The notes under the pieces were generated by a model, which was not told where the DNA came from, searched no databases, and saw only the letters and a list, made by a program, of their open reading frames with translations. From the sequence record PZ171032.1: DNA of 64,000 nucleotides; one strand, given 5' to 3'. A program made the position numbers and the translations under genes. The stretch's first letter is position 1. Every line of letters begins with the position of its first letter. This DNA comes from a phage. Of this stretch, positions 1 through 5,423 are shown piece after piece.

Positions 1-63
1 TAGTGTCCGTATCACGGACAGTAGTGTCCGTATCACGGACAGTAGTGTCCGTATCACGGACAG
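1..63. repeat. three tandem copies of a 21-bp unit TAGTGTCCGTATCACGGACAG, each holding a 7-3-7 inverted repeat (TGTCCGT-ATC-ACGGACA); array is cut by the window edge
   Basis: Read directly: identical 21-mers at 1-21, 22-42, 43-63. Palindromic arms at 21-bp (two helical turn) spacing are typical of operators for a dimeric HTH protein. Confidence 0.9.
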
Positions 64-137
64 TTACTGACCTCTATTCCAGAGCGAACATAAAATATAC
101 GAATCCTTATAGTACAGATATTTAAGTTTTTACTGGT

Positions 138-488
138 CTAACCAGTTGTTGACATCCGAATAACTTCTTCTGGTGGCAAAACTTTGGAAAATGTGCATCT
201 TTTACCTCTCCCTTGTGTGGATGTTTCAACCACCCCTGCACACTCTAAAGTTTTAACGCACGCTGCTGCTTTTGTTTTCTTTATCCCAACATCTGCTGCA
301 ATTTTCCTTGTGCTGGGTGTGAAGCGTGAATTTCCTCCAAGCTTATACCAGTTGTGCAGGTAGCAGTATACGATCTTGTCATACAAGTCAAGAACAACAA
401 CCTCTCCAGTTGTGTCATTCAAAACTTTTGACATAGACAGTATTTCAAGGGGGACTTTAAGATATAGCAGCTTATCCCCATCTTTCAT
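138..488 (-). CDS. small putative DNA-binding protein (HTH/winged-helix-like)
   Basis: 116-aa ORF with AGGAG Shine-Dalgarno just upstream of the ATG; segment TRKIAADVGIKKTKAAACVKTLECAGVV looks like a helix-turn-helix. Sits next to the palindromic repeat array. No family assignment by eye. Confidence 0.5.
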   Translation of the reverse strand: MKDGDKLLYLKVPLEILSMSKVLNDTTGEVVVLDLYDKIVYCYLHNWYKLGGNSRFTPSTRKIAADVGIKKTKAAACVKTLECAGVVETSTQGRGKRCTFSKVLPPEEVIRMSTTG

Positions 489-535
489 ATCTCCTGATTC
501 TCCTTGTGTGGCAATTTTCTTTAAAATAGCAGGGA

Positions 536-1090
536 TTACTCCCCGCTGTCAATAGAAAAACTCATTGCAATACGGTATGCCTCTTCTAATGGTAAGAGTC
601 TCCCCCACACATCCCAACCGACATCAAGCTGCCTGCCAAACAACTGTTGTGTGGTTCCGTGAGCATGACCGAACAGTTGGACTGATCCGTGAGGCTTTCT
701 GTTCCACTTTGCAAATTGGTAATGGCTCATACAGATCAAATTCTTGTTGTGGCGAAGCTCGTAATAATCTACAACCTCATGACCGAACTCTTTCATAATT
801 CTGACAGTCGTCCTTGTGTCATGGTTGCCACGAACAAGAATAATATGTCCGTTCAGCATATTTAGAACATCTGGAAGCAATTTGTTGATATTCTTATCAT
901 TAGTGCACGCAATATCCCCCAAGTGAAACACAGTGTCTGCAGGTGACACAATAGAGTTCCACTTGGTGATGATTCCCGCATTCATACTGTCAAGATTGTG
1001 ATCATACTGAGATCTGTGTTTTTGACATGAATCAAACTCCATGACCCGCTGGTGGAGAAAGTGTGTGTCGCTTGTTACAAAGTATTTCAT
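536..1090 (-). CDS. calcineurin-like metallophosphoesterase (lambda-phosphatase / Ser-Thr phosphatase type)
   Basis: Motifs SDTHF, LGDIACT, VRGNHD, GHAH in canonical order. Start placed at the internal ATG (MKYF...) preceded by GAGGAA; the track ORF extends 35 codons further upstream into the next gene. Confidence 0.75.
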   Translation of the reverse strand: MKYFVTSDTHFLHQRVMEFDSCQKHRSQYDHNLDSMNAGIITKWNSIVSPADTVFHLGDIACTNDKNINKLLPDVLNMLNGHIILVRGNHDTRTTVRIMKEFGHEVVDYYELRHNKNLICMSHYQFAKWNRKPHGSVQLFGHAHGTTQQLFGRQLDVGWDVWGRLLPLEEAYRIAMSFSIDSGE

Positions 1091-1097
1091 ACATTCC

Positions 1098-1508
1098 TCA
1101 TTTAAGTTTAATGCAGTTTTTAAGCTGGCGTTCCATACGATCCACAACCTTGTCTGGAACATCATGAATGCTTTTATTACCGTGGAGGTTTTCAACCACG
1201 ATCACGGTATAACTATATCCATGACTGATCGCCATGTCAATATATTCTTGCACATATTTTTCTTTTGTAAACGTATTACTTACCACGATACGGTCGTAGC
1301 CCATACGCATCATATCTTCTACGTTATCTTTGCACCATTTTGCTGCAAGTGTTACTTTACTTGCATCCCAATTGTAATTGCCGTCATCGTCGTACCAGAA
1401 CATATCGTTCTCAAAATGTGGATACAGACCTTCTAAAGATAGCGCATTTGCCAGTGTTGATTTGCCAGACCCTGGTAGACCACGCACGATATATAGCATT
1501 TTAGACAT
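1098..1508 (-). CDS. P-loop kinase, polynucleotide 5'-kinase-like
   Basis: Walker A GLPGSGKST six residues after the chosen start MSKMLYIV (GGAGAG SD upstream); size and context fit a Pnk-type kinase. Confidence 0.55.
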   Translation of the reverse strand: MSKMLYIVRGLPGSGKSTLANALSLEGLYPHFENDMFWYDDDGNYNWDASKVTLAAKWCKDNVEDMMRMGYDRIVVSNTFTKEKYVQEYIDMAISHGYSYTVIVVENLHGNKSIHDVPDKVVDRMERQLKNCIKLK

Positions 1509-1568
1509 AGTAACTCTCCGTTTTAATTTTAATAATAGTATACCTAACTGTTTTGTTAATTTCAAGTG

Positions 1569-1598
1569 TTGACACCAGGTTATTTGTGTGGCAGAATA
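1569..1598 (+). promoter_or_regulatory. candidate sigma70 promoter (TTGACA, about 17 bp, CAGAAT) upstream of the RNA ligase gene
   Basis: Consensus -35 read directly; -10 is weak. Confidence 0.3.
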
Positions 1599-1626
1599 AA
1601 GGGACAAAATGACAAATGAGGAATGT

Positions 1627-2544
1627 ATGATGAAGTATTTTAATGCAGACGACCTGGTTGACAAAGGTCTTGTAACCAGCAGATATTACCCAGATCTTGG
1701 ATTAAAGATCTACAAATATGCCAGAAAAGTATTCTACAACAATTTATGGCATTTGTCTCCGCGTTTACTAGAGTGCCGAGGCATTGTTGTCGGTAATGAA
1801 GGAAATGTTGTGGCATGGCCCTTCACAAAAGTGTTTAATTTGGGAGAAAACTCCACCAACCTGCCTGACAATAAACTTGTGACGGCGGTAGAGAAAAAGA
1901 ACGGATTCCTTGGTGTGGTATCATCTCATAAAGGTGAACTATTGTTTTCAACAACCGGGTCTCTTGATTCTCCATATTGTAACCTTGCAAAGGAAACCAT
2001 CCAGGAGCAATGTGGTAATTTAGATCTTATCAAGAAGGTTATGGGCCATGAAAACATGACATTCATGTTTGAAATTTGTCACCCTTCAGATCCGCATATT
2101 GTTCAGGAAGATCATGGCGCATATTTGATAGGTTGCAGATATAATGATTCCGGAATAATGCTACCAGAAGCGGCTTTAGATGGGATTGCCAAATACCTTG
2201 GTGCAAAACGTCCTCACACTGTGCGTGAAATTCCGTTCAGTTATGCAAAAGAATTAGCTGCAGAAACAAGAGGTGAAGGGTATATGATTCGTAAGCCTTA
2301 CTACCCTTATGACCTGCAGCTGAAGATTAAGTCTCCATACTATCTGGCACGGAAGGCCGTAATGAGGGGTAAAGCTTGGAAGATTTGGGATGATGATATC
2401 TTTAAACGTATTGACGAAGAGTTTTATGGCATGGTAAACTTCATTCGTAGCAATTACACAGAAGATGTGTGGAACTGCCTCCTGGAGCAGGAACGCCGTG
2501 AGATACTTGATTACTATTTCCACAACGAGAACTATATGCAATGA
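1627..2544 (+). CDS. Rnl2-family RNA ligase (nucleotidyltransferase)
   Basis: EGYMIRKPYYPY and KIKSP match recalled T4 Rnl2 motifs IV (EGYVLKP) and V (KxK); candidate motif I KKNGF; motif III-like FMFE. Start set at ATGATG (1627) behind the same 17-nt initiation cassette used by the phosphatase gene. Confidence 0.55.
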   Translation: MMKYFNADDLVDKGLVTSRYYPDLGLKIYKYARKVFYNNLWHLSPRLLECRGIVVGNEGNVVAWPFTKVFNLGENSTNLPDNKLVTAVEKKNGFLGVVSSHKGELLFSTTGSLDSPYCNLAKETIQEQCGNLDLIKKVMGHENMTFMFEICHPSDPHIVQEDHGAYLIGCRYNDSGIMLPEAALDGIAKYLGAKRPHTVREIPFSYAKELAAETRGEGYMIRKPYYPYDLQLKIKSPYYLARKAVMRGKAWKIWDDDIFKRIDEEFYGMVNFIRSNYTEDVWNCLLEQERREILDYYFHNENYMQ

Positions 2545-2589
2545 AGAAGTGGAAAGTTATTTTTAATCACTCCAGCTTAAGGGGCCTGT

Positions 2590-3198
2590 ATGAAACTTGT
2601 ACATGGTGTTGGTGTTAATGATGCAGACTATCCTGTCAGGGTTTTAGACAAGGATACTGGAAAGAGAATCATGTGTCCTTTTTATATGACATGGTCAAAT
2701 ATGCTAGGAAGGTGCTACCTTAAAAACAAGAAATTTGAAGCTTATGCTATGGTAGAAGTCTGTGAAGAATGGAAAATCTTCAGCAACTTCAAGCGTTGGA
2801 TGGAAAAACAAGATTGGCAGGATAAATTTTTAGATAAAGATATCCTCTTTGAAAATAATCTTGTATACTGTCCAGAAGCGTGTATTTTTGTTCCCCGTGA
2901 AATAAACAACTTCTTTGTAGCAAGGATGCCACAAAGAGGGGAGTGTTTAATGGGAGTAAGAAGAAAAGGCCCATCTTTTGCTGCCTATTGCAAAGATGGG
3001 GTTAAGGACACGCAGGTTTATCTTGGAACCTTCCCCACGCAGATTGAGGCACATATGAGATACTTAGAATGTAAACTGCAACTTCTTAGAGATTTGATTA
3101 GAACTGTAGATGACAGTAGGTTGCTATTAGGATTACGAAGAATTGAAAATAAGATAGTTTTAGCTTTATCTTCAAAAACACCGATAGAGAATTTTTAG
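2590..3198 (+). CDS. homing-endonuclease-like DNA-binding protein with C-terminal AP2 domain
   Basis: C-terminal GVRRKGPSFAAYCKDGVKDTQVYLGTFPTQIEAHMRY fits the AP2 DNA-binding domain found in phage HNH/homing endonucleases; N-terminal YxxWxxMxxRC-type motif. No clear catalytic motif seen. Confidence 0.45.
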   Translation: MKLVHGVGVNDADYPVRVLDKDTGKRIMCPFYMTWSNMLGRCYLKNKKFEAYAMVEVCEEWKIFSNFKRWMEKQDWQDKFLDKDILFENNLVYCPEACIFVPREINNFFVARMPQRGECLMGVRRKGPSFAAYCKDGVKDTQVYLGTFPTQIEAHMRYLECKLQLLRDLIRTVDDSRLLLGLRRIENKIVLALSSKTPIENF

Positions 3199-3206
3199 AG
3201 GGATGT

Positions 3207-3554
3207 ATGAAAGTTTGGATAGATGATTTGCGTAACCCTGCTGACTACGGGCAGACAGATGCAATTTGGTTTAAAACTTCACAAGAGGCTATGGAGTTTC
3301 TCAATAATCCTGCTAAAATGTATCGAAGAGTGACAGAGTGGTTCTTTGACCATGATTTGGGTGAAGCCTCTGATCAAGACGGGTATGCTGTTTTATTGCG
3401 CCTGGAAGAGCTATTTGTATTTGGTAAGCCCCCTGTAGTTGACAACGTGAAGATTTTCGTGCATACTTCTAACCCATCAGCGGCTCGTAAATTCATGCTT
3501 GCAGCTGACTCGTTTAAAAAGTTTGGAATAGAGATTAAACAAAACATCTACTGA
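3207..3554 (+). CDS. small protein with receiver (CheY-like) fold signature; function unknown
   Basis: WIDDLR ... FDHDLGE ... VHTSNP places acidic residues where a receiver domain has its DD/D/T pocket. Pattern only. Confidence 0.3.
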   Translation: MKVWIDDLRNPADYGQTDAIWFKTSQEAMEFLNNPAKMYRRVTEWFFDHDLGEASDQDGYAVLLRLEELFVFGKPPVVDNVKIFVHTSNPSAARKFMLAADSFKKFGIEIKQNIY

Positions 3555-3562
3555 GGACACTT

Positions 3563-4324
3563 ATGCGACGACTGATTATTATCTCCGGTGCTGGTTTGAG
3601 CGCTGAATCTGGTATTCCCACTTTCCGATCTGGTAGCACTGCAATGTGGGAGAATTTCAGCATCGATGAGGTGTGCAACATCCACACCTTTGCCAAGAAC
3701 TACTACAAGGTGCATGACTTTTACAATGCACGTCGTGTAGCTCTAGGCGGTGTTGAGCCTAACCTTGCACATCTTCGGATCGCTGAGTGGTATTCCCGCT
3801 GGTCTGGTCGTGTGATCAACCTTACCACCAATGTAGATGATTTGCTGGAGCGTGCTGGTGTAAAACATGAAGATATTTTACATGTTCACGGGTATTTGCC
3901 AGAAATAGTCTATGAGGACGATGAAGGAAGTGACGTCATTAAGGACATTGGATACTCTGAGGTAGATGCAGGAAAGTATACCTGGGTTAAACCTAATGTG
4001 GTGTTCTTCGGAGAAGTAGCTCCGAAGTATACAGACATGTATGACCTGTTGACTTCTCTTACAAGCAATGATATAGTTATCCTTGTAGGGTGTTCCAACA
4101 CAGTTATCAATTTTAACTGGGAGCTATTCCCTGCCTGCAATAAGGGCACCAAACTGCTGATCGTTAACAAATACGACTCACAGCATCTAGAGGAGAATGG
4201 CATTTCACGTAGTGATATTTACCAGTACGAGGATCGCGGCATCCCGGTTTGGTTTAACGGGGCGGTTGACGCTTTCTCTGATAAAACATTCATTGAGACC
4301 GTAGAAAACTTTATGGAACTTTAA
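3563..4324 (+). CDS. Sir2-family NAD-dependent deacylase / ADP-ribosyltransferase-like protein
   Basis: IISGAGLSAESGIPTFRS (GAGIS..GIP.FR motif), NVDDL, HVHG; lacks the paired CxxC zinc motif. Confidence 0.7.
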   Translation: MRRLIIISGAGLSAESGIPTFRSGSTAMWENFSIDEVCNIHTFAKNYYKVHDFYNARRVALGGVEPNLAHLRIAEWYSRWSGRVINLTTNVDDLLERAGVKHEDILHVHGYLPEIVYEDDEGSDVIKDIGYSEVDAGKYTWVKPNVVFFGEVAPKYTDMYDLLTSLTSNDIVILVGCSNTVINFNWELFPACNKGTKLLIVNKYDSQHLEENGISRSDIYQYEDRGIPVWFNGAVDAFSDKTFIETVENFMEL

Positions 4325-4337
4325 AAGGAGACCTTTA

Positions 4338-5051
4338 ATGCTGAATACTAAATTAATTGACAACCTGGAAAAACTATCCCAACCTGAAAACTACCTTTGG
4401 TCTGCCAACTGGGTGGAAAACTGGAACCGTGTGGCAGCTAAAGTGAAAAAATCATACACACCATTCGAATTACAGCTTAGCTTCATTGAGGAAGAGTTCA
4501 ATGAAGTTTTGGAAGAGCTGGAGAAAGGTGATGGTGGAGATCACCTGCTAAAGGAGGCCTGCGATCTTCACGTTGTCACAAGTTATGCAGCTTATCTTGT
4601 TAATGACAATCACGAAAAGTGGTCAAACCTGTTTGATAATCCACGAGGTCTTAAGTTCAAGATCGGTGAGTTCTATGACACACTGATCGCTGCGAAAAAC
4701 ACATCCAAGCAAAGAGCGTCAGCTTACCGTTTAGCGGAGTTGTCAACAGCTTTGCTGTTCCAGCTTAGCGGCGATGTGTGCGGGATGATGCGTAAGGTTC
4801 TCAAATCGAATGACAGCAAGTTTGCACGGGTCAACCATCTACGGTATTCACACGGTGCCAGTGCAGATATGCCTGCTGAACAACTCATAGAGTTGGAGAT
4901 TAAAGATCTTGAGCGACGCTTTGATGGTCGATATGAAGGTTTTGTTGCTAAGGAAGAATTCTACAACGGTAATAAAGTTATCATATTCCTTGACAGTAAA
5001 GGTAAGATCATGAAGCCTTCGAGCTTCAAGGATGTAGCAGAGTATATTTAA
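4338..5051 (+). CDS. MazG-like nucleotide pyrophosphohydrolase domain protein (tentative)
   Basis: Acidic helix pattern FIEEEFNEVLEELEKGDGGDHLLKEACD resembles the EExxE...E..D metal-binding signature of all-alpha NTP-PPases. Confidence 0.35.
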   Translation: MLNTKLIDNLEKLSQPENYLWSANWVENWNRVAAKVKKSYTPFELQLSFIEEEFNEVLEELEKGDGGDHLLKEACDLHVVTSYAAYLVNDNHEKWSNLFDNPRGLKFKIGEFYDTLIAAKNTSKQRASAYRLAELSTALLFQLSGDVCGMMRKVLKSNDSKFARVNHLRYSHGASADMPAEQLIELEIKDLERRFDGRYEGFVAKEEFYNGNKVIIFLDSKGKIMKPSSFKDVAEYI

Positions 5052-5058
5052 CAACATG

Positions 5059-5085
5059 GCCGGGATTACCCGGCTTTACTTGTTG
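5059..5085 (+). terminator. rho-independent terminator candidate (GCCGGG-atta-CCCGGC + TTTACTTGTTG)
   Basis: Hairpin plus T-rich tail read directly after the stop of the preceding gene. Confidence 0.55.
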
Positions 5086-5423
5086 TGGAAAGTATGCAAG
5101 TGAGGCAGATAGTTATGTACAAGCACTCTAGAGATCTTGAAAACGATGCTGTGTTTGGGGATCAGATGAAAGAGTTGGTTAAACTTATAGGCAGGATAGA
5201 GGATAAGTTTGACACTAAGATCTACATCGACAGCAAAGTATTCAACCACAAAATATGGACAAATCTGTGTGTTGGACTACATGGAGATAAAGATGTGGTA
5301 AATTTAGTTGTAATTAAGTTCATAGTGTGGCAGAATAAAACTATAAATTATTACGATCCACACCTGCTTGTTTACCCGATAAAAGACCTATTAGATAAGG
5401 AGGACTGCAATGCCGTTATTTAA
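5085..5423 (+). CDS. hypothetical protein
   Basis: 112-aa ORF in co-directional packed array. Confidence 0.45.
   Translation: MESMQVRQIVMYKHSRDLENDAVFGDQMKELVKLIGRIEDKFDTKIYIDSKVFNHKIWTNLCVGLHGDKDVVNLVVIKFIVWQNKTINYYDPHLLVYPIKDLLDKEDCNAVI

Follow-up and report, generated by a model that had tools for sequence, protein, structure and literature searches.

Genomic neighbourhoods of RNA end-healing and sealing genes, including those of a cREC-linked RNA ligase, have been described (PMC7824862), and the locus analysed here resembles them in that cREC and Sir2 genes follow its ligase gene. Judged by sequence, it also shares its enzyme set with T4 Pnk plus Rnl1 and with bacterial Pnkp (kinase-phosphoesterase-ligase), as it encodes a P-loop kinase, a metallophosphoesterase and an Rnl1-type ligase. 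However, unlike in those systems, the predicted kinase and phosphatase are separate small proteins whose genes are divergent from the ligase gene. The kinase-phosphoesterase junction is built like that of translationally coupled pairs, in which a stop codon overlaps the next Shine-Dalgarno (SD) sequence: the kinase TGA lies over GAGGA and the phosphoesterase ATG stands 5 nt past GAGG. The only departure from such pairs is a near-copy of the junction in front of a divergently transcribed gene. In the modular-evolution view, short conserved sequences occur at module boundaries of mosaic phage genomes. Here, too, a patch of similarity of ~25 nt is found at the edges of a relocated module, together with a boundary of discordant similarity, but its copies are inverted rather than direct and are not conserved as a pair.

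The window, i.e., the whole 64-kb stretch of DNA that was analysed, derives from a Vequintavirus, an rV5-like coliphage. Its relevant features are:

536 to 1090, minus strand: phosphoesterase gene, encoding a calcineurin-like metallophosphoesterase of 184 aa that begins MKYFVTSDTHF (Pfam Metallophos and Metallophos_2)
1078 to 1086, minus strand: phosphoesterase codons 2-4 (AAA TAC TTT, K-Y-F), an extension of the similarity past the 17-mer
1087 to 1103, minus strand: left arm of the repeat, consisting of AAA (last kinase codon), TGA (kinase stop), GAGGA, a short spacer, ATG and A
1098 to 1508, minus strand: kinase gene, encoding a predicted P-loop kinase of 136 aa (Pfam AAA_33), the segment enclosed by the arms
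1532 to 1565, minus strand: two overlapping promoter candidates for the kinase-phosphoesterase operon, sigma-70-like by consensus only, facing away from the ligase promoter
1569 to 1597, plus strand: ligase promoter candidate, sigma-70-like (TTGACA, 17 nt, CAGAAT, with TG present) by consensus match only
1614 to 1630, plus strand: right arm of the repeat in the RNA ligase leader, with GAGGA as SD and the ATG at 1627-1629 as the first of an ATGATG doublet
1630 to 2544, plus strand: RNA ligase gene, Rnl1-type, product beginning MKYFNADDL (Pfam RNA_lig_T4_1, PF09511, E 8e-15, above the curated cut-off)
1633 to 1641, plus strand: ligase K-Y-F codons (AAG TAT TTT), matching the phosphoesterase extension after the extra ATG

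A Pfam scan of the seven gene products encoded between 138 and 4324 returned HTH_36/DUF6945, Metallophos, AAA_33, RNA_lig_T4_1, cREC_REC (the cyclic-phosphate-processing receiver domain) and SIR2, with no match for the ORF at 2590-3198; the AAA_33 and Metallophos matches both exceed the Pfam cut-offs. Annotations in relatives agree, naming the 536-1090 gene 'phosphoesterase' and the 1098-1508 gene polynucleotide kinase. Sequence searches of the PDB added little for the three proteins: the phosphoesterase matched 1xm7, an uncharacterised Aquifex protein (E 1e-10), and the kinase retrieved no relative.

The initial annotation had drawn attention to a 17-nt sequence present in inverted orientation at the starts of the phosphoesterase and ligase genes, with the kinase gene between the copies. 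This description is accurate: AAATGAGGAATGTATGA occurs at 1614-1630 on the plus strand and as its reverse complement at 1087-1103, exactly two copies in the window, and the kinase gene is enclosed by them. No third copy was found in the window when up to three mismatches were allowed. Dinucleotide shuffles of the window yielded a mean of 0.02 matches, and two or more matches in 0 of 100 shuffles. Because start regions resemble one another anyway, we added a stricter control in which 94-127 putative start regions of the window were aligned on their start codons. Identity of 17/17 was confined to this pair, the next best value being 14/17 (three pairs) and others reaching 13-14/17. Under a position-specific model, 7e-4 start-region pairs are expected at 17/17, 0.02 at 16/17 and ~0.3 at 15/17 per window (94 starts); a specific adjacent and functionally linked pair such as this one would reach at least 15-16/17 with a probability of 7e-5 to 5e-6. 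The exact repeat is real and lies far beyond chance, even among start regions. We also considered that the 17-mer might be the usual ribosome-binding-site consensus of this phage, and ruled this out: the remaining starts have common AGGAG-type sites, and 14/17 is the most that any other pair attains. The resemblance continues past the 17-mer, where, after a gap of 3 nt owing to the ATGATG of the ligase, both genes read AA(A/G)TA(C/T)TTT (K-Y-F), so that the arms share AAATGAGGAAYRT, then differ by 3 extra nt (ATG/ATA), and then share ATGAARTAYTTT. A literature search returned no paper on this repeat, only general RNA-repair context.

Comparison with related phages, the check proposed for an identical cassette, did not bear the identity out. 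Arm-to-arm identity was scored in 24 related loci, with base-by-base reading of 16 of ~119 Vequintavirus records; values ranged from 13/17 to 17/17. Perfect identity is found in this phage and ECP26 only. Identity is 16/17 in rV5, MaxBurger, phiWec193, ECP32, JEP1 and three metagenome contigs, 15/17 in Mangalyan, ime, FV3 and SYGMH1, and 13-14/17 in isim, SophiaRose, PMBT16, Aya and four loci of the P0002 clade. Base changes are independent in the two arms, and the ligase copy is absent from L009, a relative in IMG/VR. The 41 nt around the right arm are matched at ≥99% identity in only 8 of ~119 phage records, so at most these eight can carry a perfect repeat. The 17/17 state of the window is that of a small subclade and lies one base from the majority state (T vs C at arm position 11); C prevails in the majority, including the divergent Aya and P0002 lineages, and T appears in two non-sister groups on trees. 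The two copies are thus not preserved together; on the preferred reading the repeat has no function as such, and each arm works simply as the ribosome-binding site of its own gene. The case illustrates how a chance change of one base can turn a modest, older resemblance into a striking exact repeat.

The two arms also differ in their setting and in the constraint they are under. The left arm appears from its layout to be an internal initiation site coupled to the kinase stop codon: its GAGGA overlaps the TGA and the phosphoesterase ATG (1090-1088) is invariant among the relatives read. In 107 of ~119 Vequintavirus records the surrounding 41 nt are identical, and the diversity of the arm is like that of coding sequence (π 0.036); this conservation is attributable to the end of the kinase protein, its stop codon, and the phosphoesterase SD and start codon all being located there. 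The right arm evolves at a neutral-like rate (π 0.103 vs 0.102 for the intergenic region), with C at position 11, CA at positions 11-12, ATA for ATG and C at position 4 as variants in relatives. It lies ~10-25 nt downstream of the promoter-like site and probably forms part of a short promoter-proximal leader, a context unlike that of the internal phosphoesterase site. The ligase transcript would start at ~1604, which would leave the ATG at 1609 without a leader; promoter-like matches such as these occur at only ~2x the shuffle expectation. Local RNA folding around each start site gave nothing beyond shuffles (z = 0.12 and 1.10).

GenBank records place the ligase start inconsistently, at equivalents of 1609, 1627 or 1630. 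The ATG at 1627 is replaced by ATA in seven relatives (ECP32, Mangalyan, ime, isim, SophiaRose, PMBT16 and L030) and is therefore dispensable, whereas every rV5-type leader that was read has the second ATG, at 1630. Its equivalent is thus the conserved start of the ligase, which settles this three-way disagreement for annotation. GAGG stands 5 nt from the ATG at 1627 and 8 nt from that at 1630, in each case within the 4-10 nt expected of an SD, as at the phosphoesterase start. That the two genes share SD, spacing and N-terminus through one identical cassette is not supported: GAGGA and the KYF residues occur in both, but the spacing is ~8 nt for the ligase and 5 nt for the phosphoesterase. The supposedly shared 'EEC' residues are a conceptual translation of the ligase leader and of the overlapping kinase 3' end and probably belong to neither protein. 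Ligases of other genera begin MKFN or MKLN; that of L009 begins MKYF from a single ATG, preceded by an unrelated leader, AACAGAGGTCTTATT.

Recombination or module shuffling at this site, as previously suggested, is supported both by gene orders in other genera and by the discordance of neighbouring segments within the genus. The order is phosphoesterase, ligase, kinase on one strand in Seunavirus, Mydovirus, Henunavirus, Justusliebigvirus, Phapecoctavirus and a Vibrio phage, i.e., the kinase gene lies downstream of the ligase gene in the same orientation. In rV5-like phages the kinase gene adjoins the phosphoesterase gene and the two run opposite to the ligase gene, which documents these phages as rearranging an otherwise collinear RNA-repair gene set. 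Within the genus, the P0002 clade, which the protein database supplied through a kinase ~80% identical, shows 75-77% identity for kinase and phosphoesterase and 89-91% for the ligase, and L009 shows ~85% for kinase and phosphoesterase, 48% for the intergenic region and 71% for the 5' part of the ligase gene. These values point to discordant histories of the kinase/phosphoesterase and ligase segments and mark the kinase/ligase intergenic region as a mosaic boundary. An intermediate gene arrangement was sought in IMG/VR and in the protein database and none was found, L009 and the P0002 clade both being rV5-arranged; kinase identities among relatives drop from ~78% straight to ≤54%. Exchange using the arms as crossover points was not observed.

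The most likely explanation, to which we assign a probability of roughly 60%, is that the arms are ordinary, independently evolving initiation regions across an rV5-specific junction, and that their resemblance is the remnant of a decaying copy. The left arm would be the native kinase-stop/SD/phosphoesterase-start junction of a translationally coupled pair, a short copy of which would have been placed before the ligase's own ATG, presumably during kinase relocation, when the kinase-phosphoesterase pair became divergent from the ligase; the two arms would then have drifted apart. We infer both the copy event and its direction. Copying would account for two features of the ligase leader, its ATG-ATG doublet and an AAATGA that has no function there, and the extra ATG sits at just the point where the start of a copied phosphoesterase junction would meet that of the ligase; the ligases of L009 and of other genera have one ATG only. 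Several observations weigh against it. At the likely ancestral identity of 15-16/17, 0.02-0.3 pairs are expected per 94 starts, which is suggestive, not overwhelming; the MK(Y)FN of the ligase is for the most part ancestral, other genera having MKFN, and some of the coding similarity therefore predates any copy; L009 and rV5-type leaders can alternatively be aligned (GACAAAA...GAGG...ATGAA), in which case a small tandem duplication, GACAAAAT GACAAAT, suffices; and an originally identical copy predicts an ancestral T at position 11, yet C is the majority base. The first three of these, together with the 13-14/17 identity of other start pairs in the window and the free divergence of the arms in relatives, speak for coincidence combined with convergent constraint. 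Both start regions would then have arisen independently as GAGG, a short A/T-rich spacer and ATG followed by A, with MK-aromatic shared by chance and one later change completing the identity. We regard this as an unlikely account, though one to be taken seriously, given the low probability of ≥15-16/17 for this adjacent linked pair and the extension of similarity into the KYF codons; convergence also leaves the extra ATG and the AAATGA unexplained.

Explanations that assign the repeat a function fare considerably worse. Co-regulated translation, which the initial annotation had suggested, found no support, as the ligase arm varies at the intergenic background rate and identity is 13-16/17 in most relatives. 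One form of this idea, a 17-mer bound by a single repressor, activator or small RNA that would fix the phosphoesterase:ligase ratio, recalls T4 RegA-type operators in that two mRNAs carry one sequence from SD to start codon; both genes are assigned by their domains to one pathway of RNA end-healing and sealing, and the 41-mer on the phosphoesterase side is unusually conserved. However, unlike in RegA-type operators, the ligase-side copy shows no constraint and has given way to another sequence altogether in one lineage (L009), most genomes have 1-4 mismatches between it and the phosphoesterase arm, the conservation of the other side is accounted for by the coding and initiation signals noted above, and the kinase, the third pathway member, has a start region different from those of the phosphoesterase and ligase. 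A shared operator is accordingly improbable. Long-range pairing is a shade less credible still: a leftward RNA from the ligase 5' region would carry the right-arm complement (anti-SD) and mask the phosphoesterase SD/AUG 510 nt downstream, making phosphoesterase translation dependent on which promoter made the operon mRNA. A promoter-like site on the minus strand (1664-1637) would start such a transcript at ~1630, and its predicted fold pairs the arms. By our reading, moreover, all five kinds of arm difference in the main rV5/FV3 group are transitions that keep G-U pairs (~4% by chance), and do so in the leftward RNA but not in RNA of the opposite strand. Yet transcription from the better candidates for the kinase promoter (1565-1532) would begin to the left of the right arm, and the main operon mRNA would not contain the complement of that arm; promoter-like matches number only ~2x the shuffle expectation, the fold follows trivially from the presence of the repeat (z = -1.39), and transversions in Aya and the P0002 clade break the pairs. 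Least probable of all is an active inversion in which the arms are recombination sites and the segment with the kinase gene and promoters flips, coupling the kinase to either the phosphoesterase or the ligase. As in the Mu G segment (Gin) and Salmonella hin, an inverted repeat flanks a segment with a gene and promoters, and flipping 1104-1613 in the sequence would give an intact kinase followed by a stop, an SD and the ligase ATG, both forms being intact because the last kinase codon and stop lie within the repeat. In contrast to those switches, a single orientation occurs in all ~119 phage records, the P0002-clade contigs and three metagenome contigs (~140 genomes/contigs), the arms are imperfect in most relatives, with 17 bp being short for homologous recombination, and no recombinase family was detected among the seven gene products scanned. 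The predicted flipped junction, with the kinase 3' end joined to ATGATGAAGTATTT, had 0 matches in metagenome and viral collections, where a control matched only three contigs and power was low; the more telling test is the phage collection, whose ~119 records are all unflipped.

Under the preferred reading of two ordinary start sites, the repeat matters little as a regulatory or recombination element, because its copies are not preserved as a pair. That the kinase 3' flank might be deeply conserved was considered separately and rejected: in PHB05 the sequence after the kinase, TAAGGAGAGTGTATG, is rV5-like, but the related SKA64 has TAAGGAGAAATAATG. The same layout, with a stop codon inside the SD, also occurs at the cREC/Sir2 junction in the window and at kinase junctions of other genera.

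The first 4.4 kb of the window match 121 phage records at 90–99% identity, and the window belongs to a Vequintavirus, an rV5-like myovirus of E. coli. A search of the 64-kb window confirmed the 17-nt inverted repeat that the initial annotation had reported at the phosphoesterase and ligase starts: AAATGAGGAATGTATGA lies at 1614-1630 on the plus strand (ligase-side arm) and its exact reverse complement at 1087-1103 (phosphoesterase-side arm), with no further copies in the window at up to three mismatches. Shuffling of the window gave an expectation of 0.02 matches. Because function alone makes start regions resemble each other, a stricter control was used, in which the start regions of the 127 putative genes called in the window were aligned on the start codon and all pairs were compared over positions -13 to +4. 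Phosphoesterase and ligase formed the sole 17/17 pair, the runners-up being three pairs at 14/17. The position-specific model predicted 7e-4 pairs at 17/17, 0.02 at 16/17 or more, 0.29 at 15/17 or more and 2.5 at 14/17 or more; the identity in this window is therefore real rather than chance. Similarity extends past the 17-mer, with a 3-nt gap (ligase ATGATG), into AA(A/G)TA(C/T)TTT, the codons for K-Y-F in each protein. The exact repeat is nevertheless ordinary: both arms are ribosome-binding sites, and the mosaic junction where they lie is of a known kind, in a phage genus that has been well sampled.

Pfam and GenBank annotations were used to check the gene products, and comparative work on phage RNA repair describes neighbourhoods of this type, devoted to RNA end-healing and sealing (PMC7824862). 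Product names are wrong in several GenBank records, e.g., the kinase as 'putative phosphoesterase' and the phosphoesterase as 'transcriptional regulator'.

Features of the RNA-repair region
138-488, minus strand, HTH protein
536-1090, minus strand, calcineurin-like metallophosphoesterase
1098-1508, minus strand, AAA_33 P-loop kinase ("polynucleotide kinase" in several records)
1565-1532, candidate kinase promoters, in the opposite direction to the ligase promoter-like site
1569-1597, promoter-like site on the ligase side (TTGACA, 17 nt, CAGAAT, TG upstream)
1609/1627/1630-2544, plus strand, Rnl1-type RNA ligase
2590-3198, plus strand, inserted ORF without a Pfam match
3207-3554, plus strand, cREC (cyclic-phosphate-processing receiver) domain protein
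3563-4324, plus strand, Sir2

The left arm is a standard translationally coupled junction, comprising on the minus strand the last kinase codon AAA, the kinase stop TGA, an overlapping GAGGA and the phosphoesterase ATG. The right arm is part of the ligase leader, some 17 nt 3' of the promoter-like site. Local RNA structure was unremarkable at either start region. Phosphoesterase, ligase, inserted ORF and cREC all have TGTATGA at their starts (1084-1090, 1621-1630, 2584-2593 and 3201-3210), and TGT precedes the ATG in just one more of the ATG-start genes among the window's 127 putative starts. Both homologous starts in the Phapecoctavirus SKA64 read TATATGA instead, and the motif common to the four adjoining starts may be due to chance.

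Of the 24 related loci in which both arms were read, 16 are phage records, three are metagenome contigs and four belong to the P0002 clade, whose kinase is ~80% identical; the last is the IMG/VR contig L009. The phosphoesterase-side arm is almost invariant, with position 9 changed to G in JEP1 and the FV3 group and to T in the P0002 clade, and positions 10-11 changed in L009 and Aya. The ligase-side arm is highly variable: position 11 is C in rV5, MaxBurger, phiWec193 and two metagenome contigs, positions 11-12 are CA in isim-type loci and in the P0002 clade, position 4 is C in FV3 and SYGMH1, and ATA replaces the first ligase ATG in ECP32, Mangalyan, ime, isim, SophiaRose, PMBT16 and one metagenome contig. 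Two groups have T at position 11 (window/ECP26/ECP32/JEP1 and FV3/SYGMH1); they are not sisters in neighbour-joining trees of the flanking segments, which are short and recombining, and T may be either a retained original or a base that arose twice. By BLAST, the 41 nt that surround the phosphoesterase arm in the window are present unchanged in 107 of ~119 Vequintavirus records, and those around the ligase arm in just 8 of ~119 at ≥99% identity. Across 15 rV5-type sequences, the phosphoesterase arm has a nucleotide diversity of 0.036, like coding sequence; the ligase arm (0.103) is as diverse as the intergenic region (0.102) and falls within the third-codon-position range (0.09–0.18), and the ligase-side copy is thus constrained no more than its neighbours. 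Neither the 24 loci nor these diversities gave any sign that likeness between the arms is kept up. The two arms match at 13 to 17 of 17 positions, and completely only in this window and ECP26, so that the proposed identical cassette is confined to a small subclade.

GenBank records place the ligase start at the equivalent of 1609 (rV5, FV3, Mangalyan, SophiaRose, PMBT16), 1627 (MaxBurger, JEP1, phiWec193) or 1630 (ECP26, ECP32, SYGMH1, isim, ime), all in one frame. Seven relatives have ATA in place of the ATG at 1627; the ATG at 1609 would lie ~5 nt from where the transcript is inferred to start, and in our reading of the aligned arms most substitutions at 1612-1629 would be non-synonymous in its frame. 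Ligases of other genera and of L009 have a single start, with MKFN, MKLN or MKYF as their first residues. Together these observations favour 1630, which is therefore the conserved start. The spacing from GAGG to ATG is then 8 nt for the ligase and 5 nt for the phosphoesterase; the "same spacing" claimed for both holds only if the ligase starts at 1627.

In Seunavirus, Mydovirus, Henunavirus, Justusliebigvirus, Phapecoctavirus and a Vibrio phage, the RNA-repair genes all lie on one strand in the order phosphoesterase, (small ORFs), ligase, (cREC), kinase, often then Sir2. Loci of Seunavirus and Mydovirus (L004 and L005, 2480-2930) carry similar stop-plus-GGAGAG sequences on both sides of the kinase, between cREC and Sir2. 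The kinase is gone from this place in all rV5-type genomes, where cREC runs directly into Sir2 (TACTGAGGACACTTATG, window 3540-3570), as if it had been precisely excised. It lies instead upstream of the phosphoesterase, both genes being inverted relative to the ligase, and the arms sit exactly at the two new junctions. In the P0002 clade, identity is 75–77% for kinase and phosphoesterase, 78% for the intergenic region and 89–91% for the 5' part of the ligase; the corresponding values for L009 are ~85%, 48% and 71%. Judged from such identities, the kinase/phosphoesterase-ligase region is mosaic within Vequintavirus, and the recombination or module shuffling suggested at this site is supported by both the relocated, inverted kinase and these discordant values. 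An E. coli-associated contig clade (L010-L015, compared with window 1-5200), with two members in bacterial assemblies (GCA_012894635, GCA_034560175), has a kinase/phosphoesterase module ~75% identical to that of the window next to a ligase ~90% identical, which speaks for exchange of modules at a boundary near 1500-1600.

We favour, with a probability of roughly 60%, a short copy of the kinase/phosphoesterase junction that later decayed. An ancestor of the rV5-type leader would have received it 5' of the ATG that the ligase already had. Such an event would account for the doubled ATG, for the AAATGA that has no function in the leader and for an identity rare by chance (5e-6 to 7e-5 for 16 or 15 of 17 in a named pair under the start-region model). 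The copy event is not proven, because MK-F-N is the ancestral ligase N-terminus, chance yields some pair per genome at 15/17 (0.29 expected in this window at ≥15/17) and a small tandem duplication lets the rV5-type leader align to that of L009; pure coincidence of two start regions, which these points favour, nonetheless appears rather unlikely.

Explanations in which the arms act together fare worse, and the co-regulated translation proposed earlier found no evidence of such joint action. An operator shared by both arms is very unlikely, given the unconstrained ligase arm and the different ligase leader of L009 (…AACAGAGGTCTTATT, followed by a single ATG, with the ligase still beginning MKYF). 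Every arm difference in the main clade would preserve G-U pairs in a leftward RNA, as expected from long-range pairing of the arms, but such pairing depends on a weak promoter-like site, and the fold is trivially implied by the repeat itself; we regard it as still less probable. Least credible is an inversion switch: the flipped orientation is absent from ~119 records and ~30 contigs, and none of the seven gene products scanned matched a recombinase family in Pfam.

The inserted ORF encodes 202 aa, and annotations of its relatives read HNH endonuclease or DNA-binding protein. Other Vequintavirus genomes are without this ORF, the ~45-nt remnant of a foreign upstream gene and the cREC 5' half (window 2545-3400), which together are 87% identical to SKA64, where a homologous ORF likewise lies just upstream of cREC. 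The segment, whose left joint falls at the microhomology GAAGT, resembles a homing-type cassette that passed between subfamilies together with its flanks. A second perfect inverted repeat, of 15 nt, joins 3440-3454, within the cREC gene, and 4564-4578, within the next-but-one ORF (TGACAACGTGAAGAT / ATCTTCACGTTGTCA). At 1-64, just past the 3' end of the HTH gene, the 21-nt unit TAGTGTCCGTATCACGGACAG forms three head-to-tail copies in an array cut by the window edge. Each unit holds the palindrome GTCCGT-atc-ACGGAC, and the array could be an operator, an iteron-like array or a hairpin set; MaxBurger has four copies in the same place.
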